Part shown: piece after piece, positions 19,234 through 25,224 of the stretch
Position numbering within the stretch: position 1 is the first letter of the stretch
Layout: each line of letters begins with the position of its first letter
From: an uncultured Clostridia bacterium
GTDB taxonomy: Bacteria; Bacillota; Clostridia; Christensenellales; UBA1242
Length of the DNA stretch: 64,000 nucleotides
Direction: 5' to 3'
Assembly: GCA_944384405.1 (NCBI GenBank)
Contig: CALWTH010000054.1
Coordinates: forward strand, 2,277-66,276
The notes under the pieces: model-generated
Told to the model about the DNA's origin: nothing
The model's database searches: none
Seen by the model: the letters and a program-made list of their open reading frames with translations, nothing else
Translations under genes and position numbers: made by a program

Positions 19234-20442
19234 TTATTTAATTAAGTTACTATTCATTAAGTCTTTAAGTTCATTCACAGAAAGAACTAAATTTTCAAAA
19301 TGTTCTTCTTCAAGAAGAAGATTTTTAGCTTTATAGCTATTTGCAAAACATCTATCATCGTATTTACAATTCAAGAAACTAGGTACATATTGTGTTTTAA
19401 TATTAGTTTCTTCGTTTTTATAAAGTGGATTAGATTTTATCTTGTTTCCTTTATCTATAAAACGATAAATTCTAAAACCTGAAGCCTTTATGTAAAAATT
19501 TAAATTTAGTAAAAACTGTATATATTTTTTATTAACAGCTCGAGCTCGAGAAACCTTATGATTAAAGTTCTTATCCGAAATATCTCTAAACTTTTTAATA
19601 AGTCTATTACAAAGATAATTATATATTCCAGTAAGGATAAGAGGCTTTAAAAAAGGTTTTTGCTCAAGCATTGTGCGGTTTAATGCTACCACACGCTTAA
19701 GGTCTATAGCAATATTTCCAGAATCCTGGTCAGTATTTAACCAAAAGCCGTCAAAGTGGTGGCGAATAAATCTTCCAGCTTCAGAGATATTGAGATTTTT
19801 ATTTTTTCCGCGTTTTCCGTCAGCTGGATTTGACATACCTATTTCGTCCTCAAACCAAACACTGAGGTATGGTGATTTTTTCTTCTGTTCAATATGACCT
19901 TGAGTTAGTTTGAGGGTTTTACGTCCTTTAAAGTCAATTAAAGGAACTGAAGAGATAAGGCAGGGCTGAAGGTAAGGGTGTTTCGCCCAGAACTCAAATG
20001 CCTCTTTAACTTCTTTCCAGTGGCGTTTTTTCTCTATGTCATTACCATTCTCTATCTGTCTAGCGAAAGGTGAGAGGAGAGCATATTCTATTTGAAGTTT
20101 TCTCCAGTTATATTCAGCCAGGTTTTTAGCATTGAATATATTACTTGATGTTTTACCTGTTCCTGGTTCACCGTCGGTCACGCTTACGCGTCTGCATTGA
20201 TAGAACTCTGCTTGTGTTTTGGCATCATGCTTGACTCGTGCTTTAGCATAAAGCCAAGCAATGAATCTGGGAGTGTTGTACGCAAAGCCACAAAGTGGCA
20301 CTGCGTACAAGCTTACAAGCCAGATTTTTTCAATTGTAGGTATTCCGATTATGAGTACTAGAACTACTAATAGGAGAGAGTAAAGTATGAAGTTAAAAAT
20401 GTACTGATACTCGGCTAGGAGTTTGATGTGTTTGTTTTTCAT
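19234..20442 (-). CDS. Membrane-anchored P-loop NTPase, Zot/pI-like (filamentous-phage assembly ATPase family) with two N-terminal TM helices
   Basis: TM1 YIFNFILYSLLLVVLVLIIGIPTI and TM2 IWLVSLYAVPLCGFAY. Walker A DGEPGTGKTSS and Walker B VWFEDEIG. FIRHHFDGFWLNTDQD resembles the Zot motif MHRHHGWDICLTT recalled from CTXphi Zot. Confidence 0.5.
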   Translation of the reverse strand: MKNKHIKLLAEYQYIFNFILYSLLLVVLVLIIGIPTIEKIWLVSLYAVPLCGFAYNTPRFIAWLYAKARVKHDAKTQAEFYQCRRVSVTDGEPGTGKTSSNIFNAKNLAEYNWRKLQIEYALLSPFARQIENGNDIEKKRHWKEVKEAFEFWAKHPYLQPCLISSVPLIDFKGRKTLKLTQGHIEQKKKSPYLSVWFEDEIGMSNPADGKRGKNKNLNISEAGRFIRHHFDGFWLNTDQDSGNIAIDLKRVVALNRTMLEQKPFLKPLILTGIYNYLCNRLIKKFRDISDKNFNHKVSRARAVNKKYIQFLLNLNFYIKASGFRIYRFIDKGNKIKSNPLYKNEETNIKTQYVPSFLNCKYDDRCFANSYKAKNLLLEEEHFENLVLSVNELKDLMNSNLIK

Positions 20443-21842
20443 GCTGGTAGGTTATCCAAGGTGTAACCACTACCAATTTTAATGTCTAATCTAGACAAAG
20501 AATCACAATCTAAAAACATATTATCGCAATCAGTCACTTTAGATGTGTCAAAGTTAGAGATATTTAGATAATCTAACACAACACAACCATTAAACATGCC
20601 ATCCATGTTAGTGACGTTTGATGTATCAAAAGTGGATAAATCTAATGAAGCGATAGATTGTGTTTGTTGAAACATATAACTCATATCGGTTGTAAATTTG
20701 GTGTTAAAATTCTCAAAATTTATTGTTATAAATTCCGATTCTACATAATACCCTTCAAATCCTAATCCTGGAATTATATTTAACCATTTAAATAATTCAC
20801 TGCAATCTTCTGGGGCGTAAATGTTTCCGTCAAAAACAAACTGGATCTCTCTATCCTCAGCTTCGTCAAAAAGTTTTCGCGTATAAACCTGAATGCCACT
20901 TTCCAGAGTTCCTAATAGATATAAGTTTTCATACCAAATAGGTTCACGTAAAAAAGATAAACTTACAATGTATGTCCCTGAATATTCTAGTAAAAAAAGG
21001 CTATCGTCCATGCTTTGTAATTGAGCTTTCCAATTTGTATCAAAAACAGCATATTCTTGAAAGACCGCTGTATAAGTGGTGTCTTCAATAATAGACTGAG
21101 GCTCGGTTATTGTTTCCTGTCCATTTGACCAGCCGATGAAATCATAACCGTCTTTTTTGGGAGCTTCTGGGAATACAGGGTATTGATTCACAATAACCAT
21201 CTGTGGAGTGCCATACGTTGCACCATCGACAATGAATGTTACATTGTAAGCTGTTATTACAGCATACAAATTTACGTCTTCGTTCACGTAAAAAGTTGAA
21301 AAATCTACAGTTTCATCGTTGTATTTCCAGCCCTCAATCGTCATTTCACCATATGAATATGGGATTTCGCTTTCGAGAACCAAGTCTCCAGCTTTAACAG
21401 CAACACTTTTTATAGGTGTATCTTCTAAGTAGAAATTGACAAAAACTATGTTTTGATCTTCTTCATTTTCGATTAAATCTTCATAGTACTTAATAGTAGC
21501 CTTAAGTTGCTCTACTTGAAGTTGAAGTTGTTTAACTTGTTCTTCGAGTTCAGGATTAGATTCGGCCAGATCTTCGTAGAGTTTTTTGTAATGATCCAAA
21601 TCTATTTGAAGTTGTTCCACTTGATTTTTGTAATCTTCAATTTGCTTGAGCAGGGAAGCCTCATTTGCCACTCCATCATTAAGACCTTGATTATATGCAT
21701 TTTGGACATCTTCATATGTGTAAGTTACTGTTCCACTGATTGCATTTTTTATCGAGTCCCAGTAAACTCCAAGCAAAACGCCGGCAACTGTTAACACCAG
21801 AAGAACCACAGATATGGCAATAGCCATTGCTTTTTTATTCAT
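20439..21842 (-). CDS. Anchored surface protein: TM, coiled coil, Listeria-Bacteroides repeat, DUF285/26-residue LRR-type repeats
   Basis: N-terminal AIAISVVLLVLTVAGVLLGVYW. Heptad-like QLQIDLDHYKKLYEDL...QLQLQVEQLKATIKYYEDL. YNVTFIVDGATYG...GYDFIGWSNG. LDLSTFDTSNVTNMDGMFNGCVVLDYLNISNFDTSKVTDCDNMFLDC. Confidence 0.7.
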   Translation of the reverse strand: MNKKAMAIAISVVLLVLTVAGVLLGVYWDSIKNAISGTVTYTYEDVQNAYNQGLNDGVANEASLLKQIEDYKNQVEQLQIDLDHYKKLYEDLAESNPELEEQVKQLQLQVEQLKATIKYYEDLIENEEDQNIVFVNFYLEDTPIKSVAVKAGDLVLESEIPYSYGEMTIEGWKYNDETVDFSTFYVNEDVNLYAVITAYNVTFIVDGATYGTPQMVIVNQYPVFPEAPKKDGYDFIGWSNGQETITEPQSIIEDTTYTAVFQEYAVFDTNWKAQLQSMDDSLFLLEYSGTYIVSLSFLREPIWYENLYLLGTLESGIQVYTRKLFDEAEDREIQFVFDGNIYAPEDCSELFKWLNIIPGLGFEGYYVESEFITINFENFNTKFTTDMSYMFQQTQSIASLDLSTFDTSNVTNMDGMFNGCVVLDYLNISNFDTSKVTDCDNMFLDCDSLSRLDIKIGSGYTLDNLPA

Positions 21843-21856
21843 AAAATTATTACTCC

Positions 21857-23601: not shown

Positions 23602-23610
23602 TTTTTACCT

Positions 23611-25224
23611 CTAAGCCCATTCATAGGCAAGACTTAAACCATGTGTCCAAATTGTGGAATATGGAACTTCAAACTCTACTGATTCACCGTTGGCACAGGT
23701 CAAGTACTCATTAAAGTCATATGAATTGCTGATCATTGCATAAATGTCATGCCCGGTGTTATTTGTAAAACGTACAGTAAACGTTTCAGATGTTGGTTGT
23801 GTAGTTATTCTGTAAACACTTTCATCTGAAAGAAATTCACCTTCGCCTATGAATTCAGCAGTAACTAGTCCCGCAAGAGGTTCACCTTCGCCACCGTAAA
23901 TATGTCCTTCAATTAACTCGTGCATATCTACGGATATTTCATATGGCTCAAAAATATCTTGAACAGCTTCAAAATATATTGAAACATTTTGTGCAGTATA
24001 TGGAATACTTGCTTGAAATAAAAATGATGAAGAATCTAATTCCTTTATGACATCACCATCTACTTCTACTAATATTTTTTTAGTGGTTCCCCAAGAAGAA
24101 TCAATTGGTGAAATTTCAATCCTAAATGAACCACTTACAGGTCTAGTAACTACATAATTTTTGCCGTCAAAAGAACCAGCTGAAGATGAAAGGGCTTCAC
24201 TCACAATAAACTGTGTTTCATCATACTCAAAAGGAATAGAATACTCTTCAAATGTTGACACTACTTCGAGTGTACACTCAGTCTCTGGTACTATGAAAGT
24301 GCATGAGGCGGTCACTCCGTCCTCTTGAGTTGTTACTTCAAGTGGTTCGCCGTTGAGTGTTATTCCGCCGAAGTATTCTGGATTGGTTATTGTAAAGTCC
24401 ATTTTTACTTCTTCGCCAACACGGATACCGTAGTATATAATGTTATATACAGAGCATGTCTCAGATGTGTAAGTAAATGCAGGGCTAGAGATTACACTTT
24501 TTGTGTCGATAGAACCTCCAAAAGGAACATAAAGGGATGATACATCTCTAACTGTGCTTGTTGCAAAAGTAACGGTTGTTAAGTCTGTGTTCTCTACTCG
24601 TATAGGTTGTTGTATAAAACCGTACTTGTCTAGTAAATGAACATACTCAACATCATTAACAAGAAATGTTTGTGTTTTATATCCAGAAGTTAAAGAAATA
24701 ACTCTTCCTGTGATTAAATCTCCAGTGTGAATTGTATCACCGTCATTAAGTGGTTTTCCATTGACTATTAGTTGCCATTGTGAGTATCTATCTTCAACTA
24801 TGTTTGCCGTATATTCTTTAATTTCCTGAACATCAACATCAATTGTGGTGTCTTTATCAATAGTTACAGTGAACATGTTATTGTCTAGTTCTATCTCTTC
24901 ACCATTTACTTTTGTTGACCAAAGCATGAAGCCATCGTTTGGTGCTAAGGTAAACGTTAGAGTTTCGCCTTGCCATTCTTTAGCTTCTAGTTCTTCTTCT
25001 GTGTAGGTATTTCCTTTGTCATCTGCACAGATGAAGGTCAAGTTGCCATTTGTATTGAGCGTTAGCTTCGATGTCTCGGCTGGTGGCTTTTCTTCGCCGA
25101 TATGCAATATCTCGCCCCAGGATTTGTTTACTATCTTAGGTACGGCGAAATATACACCAGTGGCAATGACCGCCACGCCAACAAGTCCAGCAATTGCTCC
25201 AAGTATTTTGTGTTTTTTTGCCAT
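23611..25224 (-). CDS. N-terminally anchored multi-domain surface protein with InlB-B-repeat-like modules (537 aa)
   Basis: MAKKHKILGAIAGLVGVAVIATGVYFAV anchor; repeated beta-sandwich-like modules, e.g. LTFTLAPNDGFMLWSTKVNGEEIEL...FTVTIDKDTTIDV; AGGAGG RBS. Confidence 0.65.
   Translation of the reverse strand: MAKKHKILGAIAGLVGVAVIATGVYFAVPKIVNKSWGEILHIGEEKPPAETSKLTLNTNGNLTFICADDKGNTYTEEELEAKEWQGETLTFTLAPNDGFMLWSTKVNGEEIELDNNMFTVTIDKDTTIDVDVQEIKEYTANIVEDRYSQWQLIVNGKPLNDGDTIHTGDLITGRVISLTSGYKTQTFLVNDVEYVHLLDKYGFIQQPIRVENTDLTTVTFATSTVRDVSSLYVPFGGSIDTKSVISSPAFTYTSETCSVYNIIYYGIRVGEEVKMDFTITNPEYFGGITLNGEPLEVTTQEDGVTASCTFIVPETECTLEVVSTFEEYSIPFEYDETQFIVSEALSSSAGSFDGKNYVVTRPVSGSFRIEISPIDSSWGTTKKILVEVDGDVIKELDSSSFLFQASIPYTAQNVSIYFEAVQDIFEPYEISVDMHELIEGHIYGGEGEPLAGLVTAEFIGEGEFLSDESVYRITTQPTSETFTVRFTNNTGHDIYAMISNSYDFNEYLTCANGESVEFEVPYSTIWTHGLSLAYEWA

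Follow-up and report, generated by a model that had tools for sequence, protein, structure and literature searches.

Within the window, a 64,000-nt stretch of DNA from an uncultured gut Clostridia bacterium, a 13.6-kb element integrated at tRNA-Tyr carries a block of five genes that takes up about half of it (~6 kb) and encodes four N-terminally anchored proteins followed by a membrane-anchored ATPase of the Zot/pI superfamily. We give roughly even chances to the reading that this block is the morphogenesis/egress module of virus-like elements that are temperate, non-lytic and capsid-less and form a new lineage.

The element is bounded by perfect 55-nt direct repeats (14677–14731 and 28262–28316; 100% identity, spacing 13585). 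The left copy, attL, is a duplicated 3' part of tRNA-Tyr and its sequence is also found in loci L021 and L024, while the right copy, attR, is the 3' part of the intact tRNA-Tyr (28263–28347, minus strand). At this end lie a tyrosine integrase (26944–28131, plus strand; Pfam Phage_integrase 8.6e-7, PHROG 1 integrase 1.7e-31) and a divergent pair of Xre-type HTH genes (26201–26916; 94 aa on the minus and 145 aa on the plus strand; Pfam HTH_3 6e-15 and 1.7e-16), an arrangement that looks like a lysogeny switch. With att repeats, integrase and repressor switch all present, the block does lie in a mobile element, as the earlier note had supposed. In Pfam and PHROG searches of the element, genes for capsid, portal, terminase, tail or lysis functions were not found, and PADLOC returned no match to a defence system. 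The host genome encodes a cell wall and sporulation.

The remaining genes of the element are all on the minus strand. Upstream of the block, an HNH endonuclease (25672–26058; Pfam HNH_3 1.2e-5, PHROG 959 1.2e-13) is kept in this position across the family (39–78% identity in L002, L010, L012, L013 and L014). It is separated from the block by a 447-nt leader/promoter region (25225–25671) that has no convincing gene; the region holds a 36-aa ORF with a strong Shine-Dalgarno sequence (25553–25663), has no Rfam match and shows an unremarkable DNA fold (z = -1.36). Directly downstream of the ATPase is an Xre-like HTH regulator (18658–18996; Pfam HTH_3 5e-4, PHROG transcriptional repressor), whose position is kept in L001, L002, L011 and L018, and then a basic 145-aa protein (18276–18713; 32 K+R), conserved subfamily-wide (45–64% identity in L001, L002, L008, L009 and L011) and a candidate DNA-binding protein or nucleoprotein. 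The replication initiator or replisome organiser (17379–18242) combines Lin1244_N (Pfam, 4.5e-12) with a DnaD-like C-terminus, and also matches PHROG 2562 'replication initiation protein' (2.6e-18) and a DnaD-like helicase loader. It is followed by three small soluble proteins of 66, 130 and 100 aa (16495–17386), partly conserved in relatives and without Pfam match, a 215-aa DUF4417 protein (15873–16520; Pfam 6.5e-58; 65–83% identity to its counterparts in L001, L011 and L015), a putative zinc metallopeptidase-like protein of 251 aa with a HEMGH motif (15100–15855; Pfam Peptidase_Mx 3.5e-6, ATLF 1e-3) and, as the last gene, a 71-aa protein with no assigned function (14883–15098), conserved in L001, L011 and L015.

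The five co-directional minus-strand genes of the block fill positions 19234–25224 exactly, and both the ORF list and the recomputed junctions (9-nt gap, 4-nt overlap, 14-nt gap, 4-nt overlap, the overlaps being 22369–22372 and 20439–20442) agree with the tightly coupled operon described earlier. These ORFs are not chance features, because they are long for ~35% GC DNA and have homologues (detectable for the ATPase and the 537-, 410- and 467-aa proteins) or positional equivalents elsewhere. Each of the four upstream proteins begins with a single hydrophobic helix (Kyte-Doolittle 2.2–2.9, residues ~8–28), also as described, and continues with an acidic remainder. An InlB-B-repeat-like stretch had been proposed in the first of them, the 537-aa protein (23611–25224), where we found no Pfam Flg_new_2 match at E ≤ 0.1; Flg_new_2 is matched by some of the equivalent upstream proteins of relatives (positions 2–4 in L013, positions 3–4 in L005). 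The 410-aa protein (22369–23601) has no known domain and shares 24–28% identity with the second gene in L001 and in L008. For the 171-aa protein (21857–22372) no sequence homologue was found; all relatives have a positional equivalent of 169–206 aa, in some cases with a Flg_new_2 match, and in related loci a gene of 170–206 aa in this place keeps the N-terminal helix. The 467-aa protein (20439–21842), whose stop overlaps the ATPase start by 4 nt, is the richest in domains: behind its N-terminal TM come a coiled coil of ~90 residues, indicated by many coiled-coil-type weak matches at residues ~44–135, a Flg_new repeat (Pfam, 1.1e-8) and BspA-type LRR repeats (DUF285, 5.7e-17; PARCEL/Liste_lipo_26, 8.3e-18). 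Its N-terminal ~200–260 aa form the best-conserved surface segment of the block (28–39% identity in L001, L002, L008 and L010).

The last gene (19234–20442, 402 aa) is the membrane-anchored P-loop NTPase that had been predicted, with an N-terminal TM hairpin, a Walker A motif GEPGTGKTS (residues 91–99) and a Walker B motif at D199-E200; other conserved residues are R227-H228, Q239 and YDDRC (361–365). The AF2 model is confident (pLDDT 95.4, with the transmembrane hairpin at pLDDT 95). The ATPase family comprises 394 clusters at 50% identity, and among 100 members examined for domain matches at least 79 have a TM ahead of Walker A, 16 match Pfam Zot and 11 match PHROG 'Zot-like toxin'. The window ATPase itself matches no Pfam family, Zot included, and no PHROG. 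In hhalign comparisons the ATPase profile aligned equally well with that of canonical pI (86.8% probability, E 4e-6, 63 columns) and with that of plasmavirus L2 ORF3 (83.5%, E 8.4e-6, 140 columns, spanning the end of TM2 to the sensor Q). Among PDB structures, the Zot N-terminal domain (2r2a, E 4e-5) is the top fold match and STIV2 B204 the next; FtsK/HerA, AAA+ and ABC proteins rank below Zot. In BFVD, L2 ORF3 (P42538) and several entries named 'Zot [Inoviridae sp.]' are among the fold matches. The description of the ATPase as Zot-like thus holds at the superfamily level only: family matches, pI profile and fold speak for a remote Zot/pI relative, while the window protein fails Pfam Zot. The likeness to L2 ORF3 and pI is moderate (profile probabilities of 83–87%) and may be due in large part to ASCE P-loop motifs that these proteins have in common.

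Wherever a related locus is long enough for an assessment, the block accompanies the ATPase. Four upstream genes whose products have N-terminal helices, with junctions that are tight or overlap, form a chain conserved in the window, L001, L002, L006, L010 and L013; L005, L014 and L027 have the same chain, except that their first upstream ORF, in the form called, has no N-terminal helix. Across loci sharing the chain, ATPase identity falls to ~30%. Whether the replication gene is of the Lin1244/DnaD, RepL or Rep_1 kind and the integrase a tyrosine or a serine enzyme, the block remains the family's conserved core; L013, for example, encodes a large serine recombinase together with a CI-like repressor (HTH+Peptidase_S24). 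L014, a 13,023-bp contig carrying the same block, has ends that overlap by 127 bp, the k-mer length of the assembler, and is therefore a circular episome of ~12.9 kb. L010 carries a relative of the element, integrated at the same tRNA-Tyr site of a related species, in which the ATPase is 86%, the integrase 83% and the HNH protein 78% identical to those of the window, while the 537-aa protein is only 42% (over 355 aa) and the 467-aa protein 39% identical, and similarity of the 410- and 171-aa proteins is undetectable. The surface proteins are hypervariable. Sizeable as it is, the family is absent from all phage, plasmid and viral-contig collections searched: two pattern scans of IMG/VR, tblastn of GenBank phages with three family members and a search of 72,556 plasmids gave no match, and the IMG/VR and GenBank phage results leave the family with no independent viral label.

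As a virus-like module, the block might work as follows. On derepression of the Xre switch the element would excise at the 55-nt att sites and, relying on its DnaD/Lin1244-type initiator together with the host replisome, replicate as a circular dsDNA episome. Expression of the coupled operon would place the four N-terminally anchored proteins in the cell membrane so that their acidic ectodomains face outwards, and the adhesin-type beta-repeat and LRR domains and very fast evolution of these ectodomains would fit receptor-binding or spike proteins. Held at the cytoplasmic face by its TM hairpin, the ATPase, presumably an oligomeric motor, would couple ATP hydrolysis to the loading of element DNA, probably double-stranded and perhaps covered with the basic 145-aa protein, into a particle derived from the membrane, which would leave the cell non-lytically, by extrusion or budding. 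Budding of an enveloped particle is mechanistically hard to picture, since the host is walled and the element encodes neither a wall hydrolase nor a secretin-like channel.

The earlier note had suggested an inovirus-like filament assembly module. Its Zot/pI-superfamily ATPase and mobile-element setting stood up, but the specific inovirus identity did not: the element has no short coat protein (no 30–90-aa single-TMD ORF on its sense strand is a candidate structural or major coat protein), no HUH/rolling-circle Rep and no recognised ssDNA-binding protein, and it is not a canonical inovirus. We regard a true filamentous ssDNA phage (Tubulavirales-type) of a Gram-positive host, in which four tip, adsorption or coat proteins and a pI motor would extrude an ssDNA filament, as rather unlikely. 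Zot is, to be sure, the closest named domain for the ATPase family, the gene order, with the ATPase after the surface proteins, is like that of gIII-gVI-gI in M13, gut Clostridiales are known to have filamentous phages (PMC8530359), and the distant member L019 has as neighbours a rolling-circle Rep_1 gene and a gene for a hydrophobic 62-aa protein whose C-terminus is basic. Roux et al. (2019; PMC6813254) accept pI-like proteins whether their one or two TMDs lie at the N- or the C-terminal end. The anchor of M13 pI lies near the C-terminus, whereas that of the window ATPase is N-terminal. Yet the DnaD/Lin1244-type replication gene is typical of dsDNA replicons, the element's genes are long rather than short, the window ATPase lacks a Zot match in Pfam or PHROG, the IMG/VR scans were negative, and 13.6 kb of ssDNA would need a filament about twice the length of M13.

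The absence of capsid or coat genes and of matches in viral collections, together with integrase and replication genes like those of small integrative mobilisable elements, would also suit a non-viral element, with the block as a cell-to-cell DNA-transfer or surface-display apparatus: four adhesins would join cells while the membrane ATPase pumps DNA, by analogy with single-ATPase TraB transfer in actinomycete integrative elements, or energises adhesin display. The surface proteins do bear classical bacterial adhesin modules (Flg_new, PARCEL/DUF285, LRR_5), and the DNA-pumping/packaging proteins STIV2 B204 and HerA are among the fold matches of the membrane-anchored P-loop NTPase. We nevertheless consider this unlikely: Pfam revealed no relaxase, coupling protein, VirB4 or FtsK/TraB-type translocase domain, the element lacks a peptidoglycan hydrolase gene, plasmids yielded no match, repressors of the phage CI/S24 type occur in relatives, the ATPase lies closest to Zot and not FtsK, and in architecture the best match is to L2, a proven virus. 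Adhesin or surface-display cargo, the alternative offered earlier, is less likely because the block is the conserved core and about half of a small element. The same ~6 kb of 13.6 kb, kept across three replication-gene and two integrase types, makes a helper-dependent satellite (PICI-like) or host-benefit or defence cargo (e.g. superinfection exclusion or abortive infection) highly improbable, despite the small integrated form, repressor switch, lack of capsid genes and HNH endonuclease; we found neither a terminase small subunit nor a capsid-remodelling gene in the element, and PADLOC was negative.

The virus-like module that we prefer has its nearest parallel in the budding mycoplasma virus L2. 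With L2 and L2-like proviruses there is a shared layout of large envelope proteins, a small TM protein, an ATPase, a ~140-aa protein, an integrase and an HTH gene, and in L2-like proviruses Flg_new-bearing large membrane proteins lie directly upstream of an N-terminally anchored ATPase, as in the window. The L2 envelope proteins are type I (signal peptide and C-terminal anchor), whereas the window proteins are anchored N-terminally, and beyond the ATPase no element protein has detectable homology to L2 or inovirus proteins. The element resembles L2 at least as much as it does filamentous phages, and in module organisation Plasmavirus L2 comes closest, with the pIII-pVI-pI segment of filamentous phages more distant.

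The 13.6-kb element is bounded by a perfect 55-nt direct repeat (14677-14731 and 28262-28316), a duplication of the 3' part of a tRNA-Tyr gene (28263-28347, minus strand). Read from its right end, the element encodes first a tyrosine integrase, then two divergently oriented Xre regulators and an HNH endonuclease; beyond a 447-nt leader (25225-25671) comes the five-gene block. After the block follow an HTH regulator and a basic protein of 145 aa, then a replication initiator of Lin1244_N/DnaD-like type and three small proteins, and lastly the genes for a DUF4417, a metallopeptidase-like and a 71-aa protein. 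Searches with Pfam and PHROG recovered nothing in the element that would encode a capsid, portal, terminase, tail, holin or endolysin. The left flank is ordinary chromosome (mutS, mutL, miaA), and the right flank carries a tRNA cluster, spoIIAA/AB, sigF and spoVA. The sporulation genes and a class A PBP encoded nearby indicate that the host, a low-GC spore former whose GTDB relatives are all 'uncultured Clostridia bacterium' MAGs, has a cell wall.

Several features surround these boundaries. Direct repeats of the form TTTTTGGATAAG(T/A)TTTT lie just inside attL (14769-14819) and, on the attR side (28098-28148), where the integrase gene ends or beyond that point; they are candidate arm-type integrase binding sites. 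Between miaA and attL, an 18-nt exact repeat, GGGAAGAGTAATCTTCCT, occurs in terminator-like hairpins at 14395-14412 and 14583-14600. A search for an empty integration site by identical miaA protein led to a contig (L023, miaA 99.9% identity) that departs from the window at 14582, at the second GGGAAGAGTAATCTTCCT copy, and runs on into genes for a sigma-70-like protein and a protein of 452 aa. We rejected it as a clean empty site, since the divergence precedes attL and the att sequence is absent; its continuation into other genes marks the miaA-attL intergenic region as a variable hotspot. At the same far end of the element, the DUF4417 protein (15873-16520) is among the better-conserved products (65-83% identity across relatives) and is paired with a fast-evolving HExxH metallopeptidase-like protein (15100-15855). 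The composition profile shows an unusually low GC content at 43000-48000 (26-30%, against ~32-36% elsewhere).

All five open reading frames of the minus-strand block coincide exactly with those described in the earlier note. They encode proteins of 537 aa (23611-25224), 410 aa (22369-23601), 171 aa (21857-22372) and 467 aa (20439-21842) and the 402-aa ATPase (19234-20442), with successive junctions consisting of a 9-nt gap, a 4-nt overlap, a 14-nt gap and a 4-nt overlap. Each of the four upstream products opens, as had been proposed, with a single strongly hydrophobic N-terminal segment, beyond which all four are markedly acidic. The DUF285 repeats, Listeria-Bacteroides (Flg_new) repeats and coiled coil claimed for the block were all detected in the 467-aa protein (DUF285, 5.7e-17; Flg_new, 1.1e-8; PARCEL repeats, 8.3e-18; a coiled-coil-like stretch of ~90 residues), while the InlB-B-repeat claimed for the 537-aa protein was not detected by Pfam. 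Neither the 537-aa nor the 410-aa protein matched anything in Pfam, PHROG, NCBIfam or PDB-sequence searches, and the 171-aa protein had no match in Pfam, PHROG or NCBIfam. The leader upstream of the block has no Rfam match; considered as a candidate packaging hairpin, origin or RNA, it gave an unremarkable DNA fold z-score of -1.36. A scan for promoters and terminators did not rise above shuffled expectation. Within the leader is a 36-aa open reading frame, MEFNFKQYKMFCFCLGLKPSRASSLFAFKIVCSTLL (25553-25663, minus strand), preceded by a strong Shine-Dalgarno sequence (AGGAGG); in the related locus L002, the corresponding place is taken by an N-terminally anchored protein of 79 aa.

The earlier note had raised the question of whether the block recurs in other genomes. 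Most related loci that reach far enough upstream carry the same four-gene chain followed by the ATPase, with products of 420-740, ~400-460, ~170-205 and ~315-520 aa in order; L006 and L027 do not fully fit these sizes. Neighbouring genes lie close together or overlap, an arrangement that persists down to ~30% ATPase identity. All four upstream proteins begin with a hydrophobic helix in the window and in L001, L002, L006, L010 and L013, while the first upstream open reading frame, as called, is without one in L005, L014 and L027. The InlB-B-type repeat that Pfam did not detect in the 537-aa protein does occur, as Flg_new_2, in the upstream proteins of some relatives (positions 2-4 of the chain in L013, positions 3-4 in L005). 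Conservation extends to the HNH gene that precedes the block. Around this core the family is combined with tyrosine or large serine recombinases, with Xre or CI-like HTH+S24 repressors, and with replication genes of the Lin1244/DnaD, RepL or rolling-circle Rep_1 type. One relative, L001, carries extra cargo genes (DUF5655, SLFN_AlbA_2).

Two relatives are particularly informative. The two ends of L014, a contig of 13,023 bp, share 127 bp, the k-mer size of the assembler, which indicates a circular molecule of ~12.9 kb; this circle carries the full block, an integrase and regulators. In L010, which comes from a related species, the same tRNA-Tyr site is occupied by a related element. Its ATPase, integrase and HNH endonuclease are 86%, 83% and 78% identical to those of the window, its counterparts of the 537- and 467-aa proteins are 42% and 39% identical, and similarity to the 410- and 171-aa proteins is undetectable. 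Compared with the remainder of the element, the surface proteins are therefore hypervariable, the pattern expected of receptor-binding or antigenically exposed proteins. Both L010 (integrated in tRNA-Tyr) and L014 (circular, ATPase ~30% identical) were recovered in one MAG, E02__bin162, reflecting either co-residence in one host or a binning artefact. IMG/VR yielded no relatives in pattern scans with two alignments (the 100-sequence alignment being too divergent for patterns), GenBank phages gave no match to three family members by tblastn, and a JGI metagenome scan added only three further loci.

The last gene of the block encodes, as originally described, a membrane-anchored P-loop NTPase. 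Walker A spans residues 91-99 and Walker B is D199-E200; R227-H228, Q239 and YDDRC 361-365 are invariant as well. A high-confidence AlphaFold2 model shows an N-terminal transmembrane hairpin and also places a ~55-residue helical insertion behind Walker A. A transmembrane segment precedes Walker A in at least 79 of 100 family members. The model was built from a 100-sequence alignment (pLDDT 95.4) and replaced a run with 16 close sequences in which the P-loop was disordered (pLDDT 71.8). A word-indexed search with the window ATPase found only 17 homologues. Profile searching of 1.84 billion representatives returned 394 clusters at 50% identity, 146 of them at E<=1e-30, so that the family is sizeable as well as unannotated. 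Its members accompany fast-evolving surface proteins on small elements, integrating or circular, of uncultured Clostridia.

The earlier note had called this protein Zot-like, a description that holds at the level of the superfamily. The window protein itself found nothing in direct searches of Pfam, PHROG, NCBIfam and PDB sequences, and did not match Pfam Zot (PF05707) at E<=0.1 or E<=1. Of 100 diverse family members, however, 16 matched Pfam Zot (best 5e-9) and 11 matched PHROG 197 'Zot-like toxin'. In Foldseek comparisons of the model with the PDB, the top match was the N-terminal domain of Neisseria Zot (2r2a, E 4.2e-5, TM 0.56), ahead of the STIV2 B204 packaging ATPase, p97 and HerA. The FtsK/HerA, AAA+ and ABC types, any of which would have spoken against the Zot reading of the earlier note, thus rank below Zot. 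Among viral predicted structures (BFVD), several matches bear the name 'Zonular occludens toxin [Inoviridae sp.]'; others include A32-like packaging ATPases, and one is the 37.2-kDa protein of Acholeplasma phage L2 (P42538, Foldseek E 7e-4); the top two, A0A894JLK1 and A0A345MYA4, are both nameless, and we found no literature on them. Profile-profile comparison with hhalign aligned the family to M13-type pI over 63 columns from Walker B to the QD/R sensor region (86.8%, E 4.2e-6), and to L2 ORF3 over 140 columns from the end of TM2 through Walker A, Walker B, RH and Q (83.5%, E 8.4e-6); L2 ORF3 and pI aligned to each other over 135 columns with the same motif order (13%, E 2e-3). The member matches to Zot, the fold match and the profile-profile scores together place the ATPase, on sequence and modelled structure, as a remote member of the Zot superfamily, about equally distant from pI and L2 ORF3.

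Given this ATPase, a true ssDNA filamentous phage deserves consideration, and the block had been put forward as a possible inovirus-like assembly module. Gene order and ATPase superfamily fit that reading: as in M13/Ff (gIII-gVI-gI), surface or adsorption proteins lie directly upstream of a membrane-anchored Zot-superfamily ATPase, and the element is likewise small, temperate and flanked by att sites. Inovirus genomes have been defined by a pI-like ATPase, by genes that are short overall and by structural proteins of only 30-90 aa with a single TMD; the pI-like protein itself may have one or two TMDs at either terminus (Roux et al., 2019; PMC6813254). The window ATPase is pI-like at superfamily level, and its N-terminal hairpin falls within the accepted topologies, whereas M13 pI has a C-terminal transmembrane segment and a periplasmic domain. 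The ~55-residue insertion behind Walker A is a further difference from pI/Zot. The remaining inovirus hallmarks are absent. No 30-90-aa single-TMD coat candidate was found, the small hydrophobic open reading frames in 14600-28320 all being antisense to real genes and none lying in a sense-strand gap of the element; structural candidates are instead four proteins of 171-537 aa, where an inovirus has one pIII and several tiny proteins. No HUH initiator (Rep_trans, Phage_CRI or Rep_1) and no ssDNA-binding protein was recognised in the window, and the replication gene is of the dsDNA-type DnaD/Lin1244 class rather than the HUH class of inoviruses. We therefore regard a filamentous phage as unlikely for the window element itself. 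Some relatives do encode small hydrophobic proteins (79 aa in L002, 62 aa in L019), and the distant relative L019, the only one in which Rep_1 was seen, is more inovirus-like: its 62-aa hydrophobic protein (4154-4342), with a basic C-terminus (…RWAIKKIKG), is encoded upstream of the ATPase, the family member that adjoins the Rep_1 gene, and resembles an inovirus coat or pVI-type protein. The Rep_1 gene and this protein suggest that the ATPase family may straddle ssDNA-like and dsDNA-like replicon types.

A contact-dependent transfer or adhesin-display module would also join surface proteins to a membrane ATPase, but we consider this improbable: no relaxase, coupling protein, VirB4/VirD4 or FtsK/TraB-type translocase was detected (Pfam for all element open reading frames, NCBIfam for ten), and tblastn with the window ATPase found no match among PLSDB plasmids. 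It is less probable still that the block is satellite or defence cargo. Neither the ATPase nor the other proteins matched a defence system in PADLOC, apart from a coiled-coil-level match of the 467-aa protein (E 0.0024), and terminase and capsid-remodelling genes are absent.

Most likely, the block is a morphogenesis and egress module. Under such a scheme, the four spike- or adhesin-like proteins would be inserted in the membrane with the N-terminus inside and the C-terminus outside, the membrane-tethered Zot-like motor would load element DNA, which the basic 145-aa protein may condense, into a membrane-associated particle, and the particle would be released without lysis. Of the four, the 467-aa protein would be the likeliest to contact the motor directly, given its conserved TM/coiled-coil N-terminus and its stop codon, which overlaps the ATPase start. 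We infer all of these steps, and the chief difficulty they face is the Gram-positive cell wall, as the element encodes no hydrolase or channel.

The virus that the proposed morphogenesis module most resembles in organisation is L2, an 11,965-bp, temperate, tRNA-integrating, enveloped and budding plasmavirus of Acholeplasma with translationally coupled genes; Plasmaviridae are said to have only the integrase in common with other viruses (PMC12662186). The order of L2 genes is ORF12 (4 TM), ORF13 (738-aa envelope protein), ORF14 (envelope protein), ORF1 (591 aa), ORF2 (81 aa, 2 TM), ORF3 (ATPase), ORF4 and integrase, and L2-like proviruses keep this order. Both L2 and the window element are circular or integrated genomes of ~12-14 kb and ~32-36% GC without capsid genes, in which a tyrosine integrase targets a tRNA gene and, in a one-directional coupled operon, the genes for large surface proteins with a membrane anchor immediately precede that of a P-loop ATPase. 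The description of Plasmaviridae genomes (~12-kb circular, temperate, tRNA-integrated) fits the window element, which is 13.6 kb long and sits in tRNA-Tyr, taken together with its relative on a circular 12.9-kb contig. In both ATPases an N-terminal hydrophobic region precedes the P-loop at residue ~90-100, and Walker A, Walker B, RH and Q motifs are shared. The Flg_new family is common to the two largest proteins of L2-like proviruses, the window 467-aa protein and the L013 proteins. The window element therefore agrees with L2 in its size, in where it integrates, in the style of its operon and the order of its modules, in the domains it encodes and in how the ATPase is built, the Flg_new repeats and gene order being an architectural resemblance only.

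The differences are also substantial. A hmmsearch of L2 proteins with the ATPase profile was not significant, leaving the link to profile-profile and fold comparison, and the remaining element proteins showed no BLAST similarity to L2 proteins. L2 envelope proteins have a signal peptide and a C-terminal anchor, whereas the window surface proteins have an N-terminal anchor only; ORF2 and ORF12 have no counterpart in the window element; L2 uses DnaA-box origins and no Lin1244 initiator, in contrast to the Lin1244/DnaD initiator here; and L2 hosts are wall-less, while the window host is a spore-forming Clostridia with a cell wall. Separately, an unannotated minus-strand stretch of L2 adjoining attP (L13696, 5027-5260) encodes an Xre-like HTH segment, 38% identical over 78 aa to the 145-aa regulator of the window (tblastn E 2e-8). 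L2 is described with all its ORFs on one strand, yet this segment lies on the other, so L2 may have an overlooked repressor gene.

We tentatively propose, as a possibility subject to considerable doubt, that the element stands for a new virus family of gut Clostridia with cell walls: temperate dsDNA viruses, non-lytic and capsid-less, whose module of hypervariable, membrane-anchored spike proteins and an N-terminally anchored Zot-like ATPase would be homologous to that of Plasmaviridae. Were this true, the orphan Plasmaviridae would gain their first relatives outside Acholeplasma, and plasmavirus budding would be tied to the pI/Zot assembly motor of filamentous phages. If particles are made, such elements would be chronic viruses or vehicles of gene transfer that have stayed hidden in gut Firmicutes, and would show how DNA can exit a Gram-positive cell through its wall with no lysis. 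Sampling of bacterial viruses that are neither tailed nor lytic is very poor, since the hallmark genes used by detection tools are missing from them, and our family alignment of the ATPase could serve as a marker for elements of this kind.

Modules of comparable design are known from other systems. Pleolipoviridae combine a conserved virion module (spike, membrane protein, putative NTPase) with exchangeable replication modules and have ssDNA or dsDNA genomes, just as the ATPase block of the window family is joined to three types of replication gene; pleolipoviruses, however, have archaeal hosts and type I spike proteins, and no homology to the window family was detected. The Dehalococcoides IME1 elements, integrated and episomal, are 21-28 kb long, have no tailed-phage hallmarks and carry a central module of a pI-like ATPase with membrane and signal-peptide proteins, some with adhesion domains; abundant in viromes, they were proposed in a September 2026 preprint (Nesbo et al., bioRxiv 10.64898/2026.09.15.751708) to be dsDNA viruses of a budding or filamentous kind that do not lyse the cell, a precedent for a non-lytic virus-type interpretation of the window element. 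By their descriptions, the two share the absence of tailed-phage hallmarks and a conserved module of pI-like ATPase and membrane proteins. They differ in that IME1s are restricted to Chloroflexota, whereas the window element belongs to Clostridia and is only 13.6 kb, and in that the IME1 TM proteins are short, hydrophobic, SSV1 VP1-like and encoded downstream of the ATPase, while the window surface genes lie upstream. The element is in this respect a variation on a known theme, that of non-lytic elements driven by a Zot/pI ATPase, and its credible, if unproven, link to Plasmaviridae would be of real interest to virus taxonomists.
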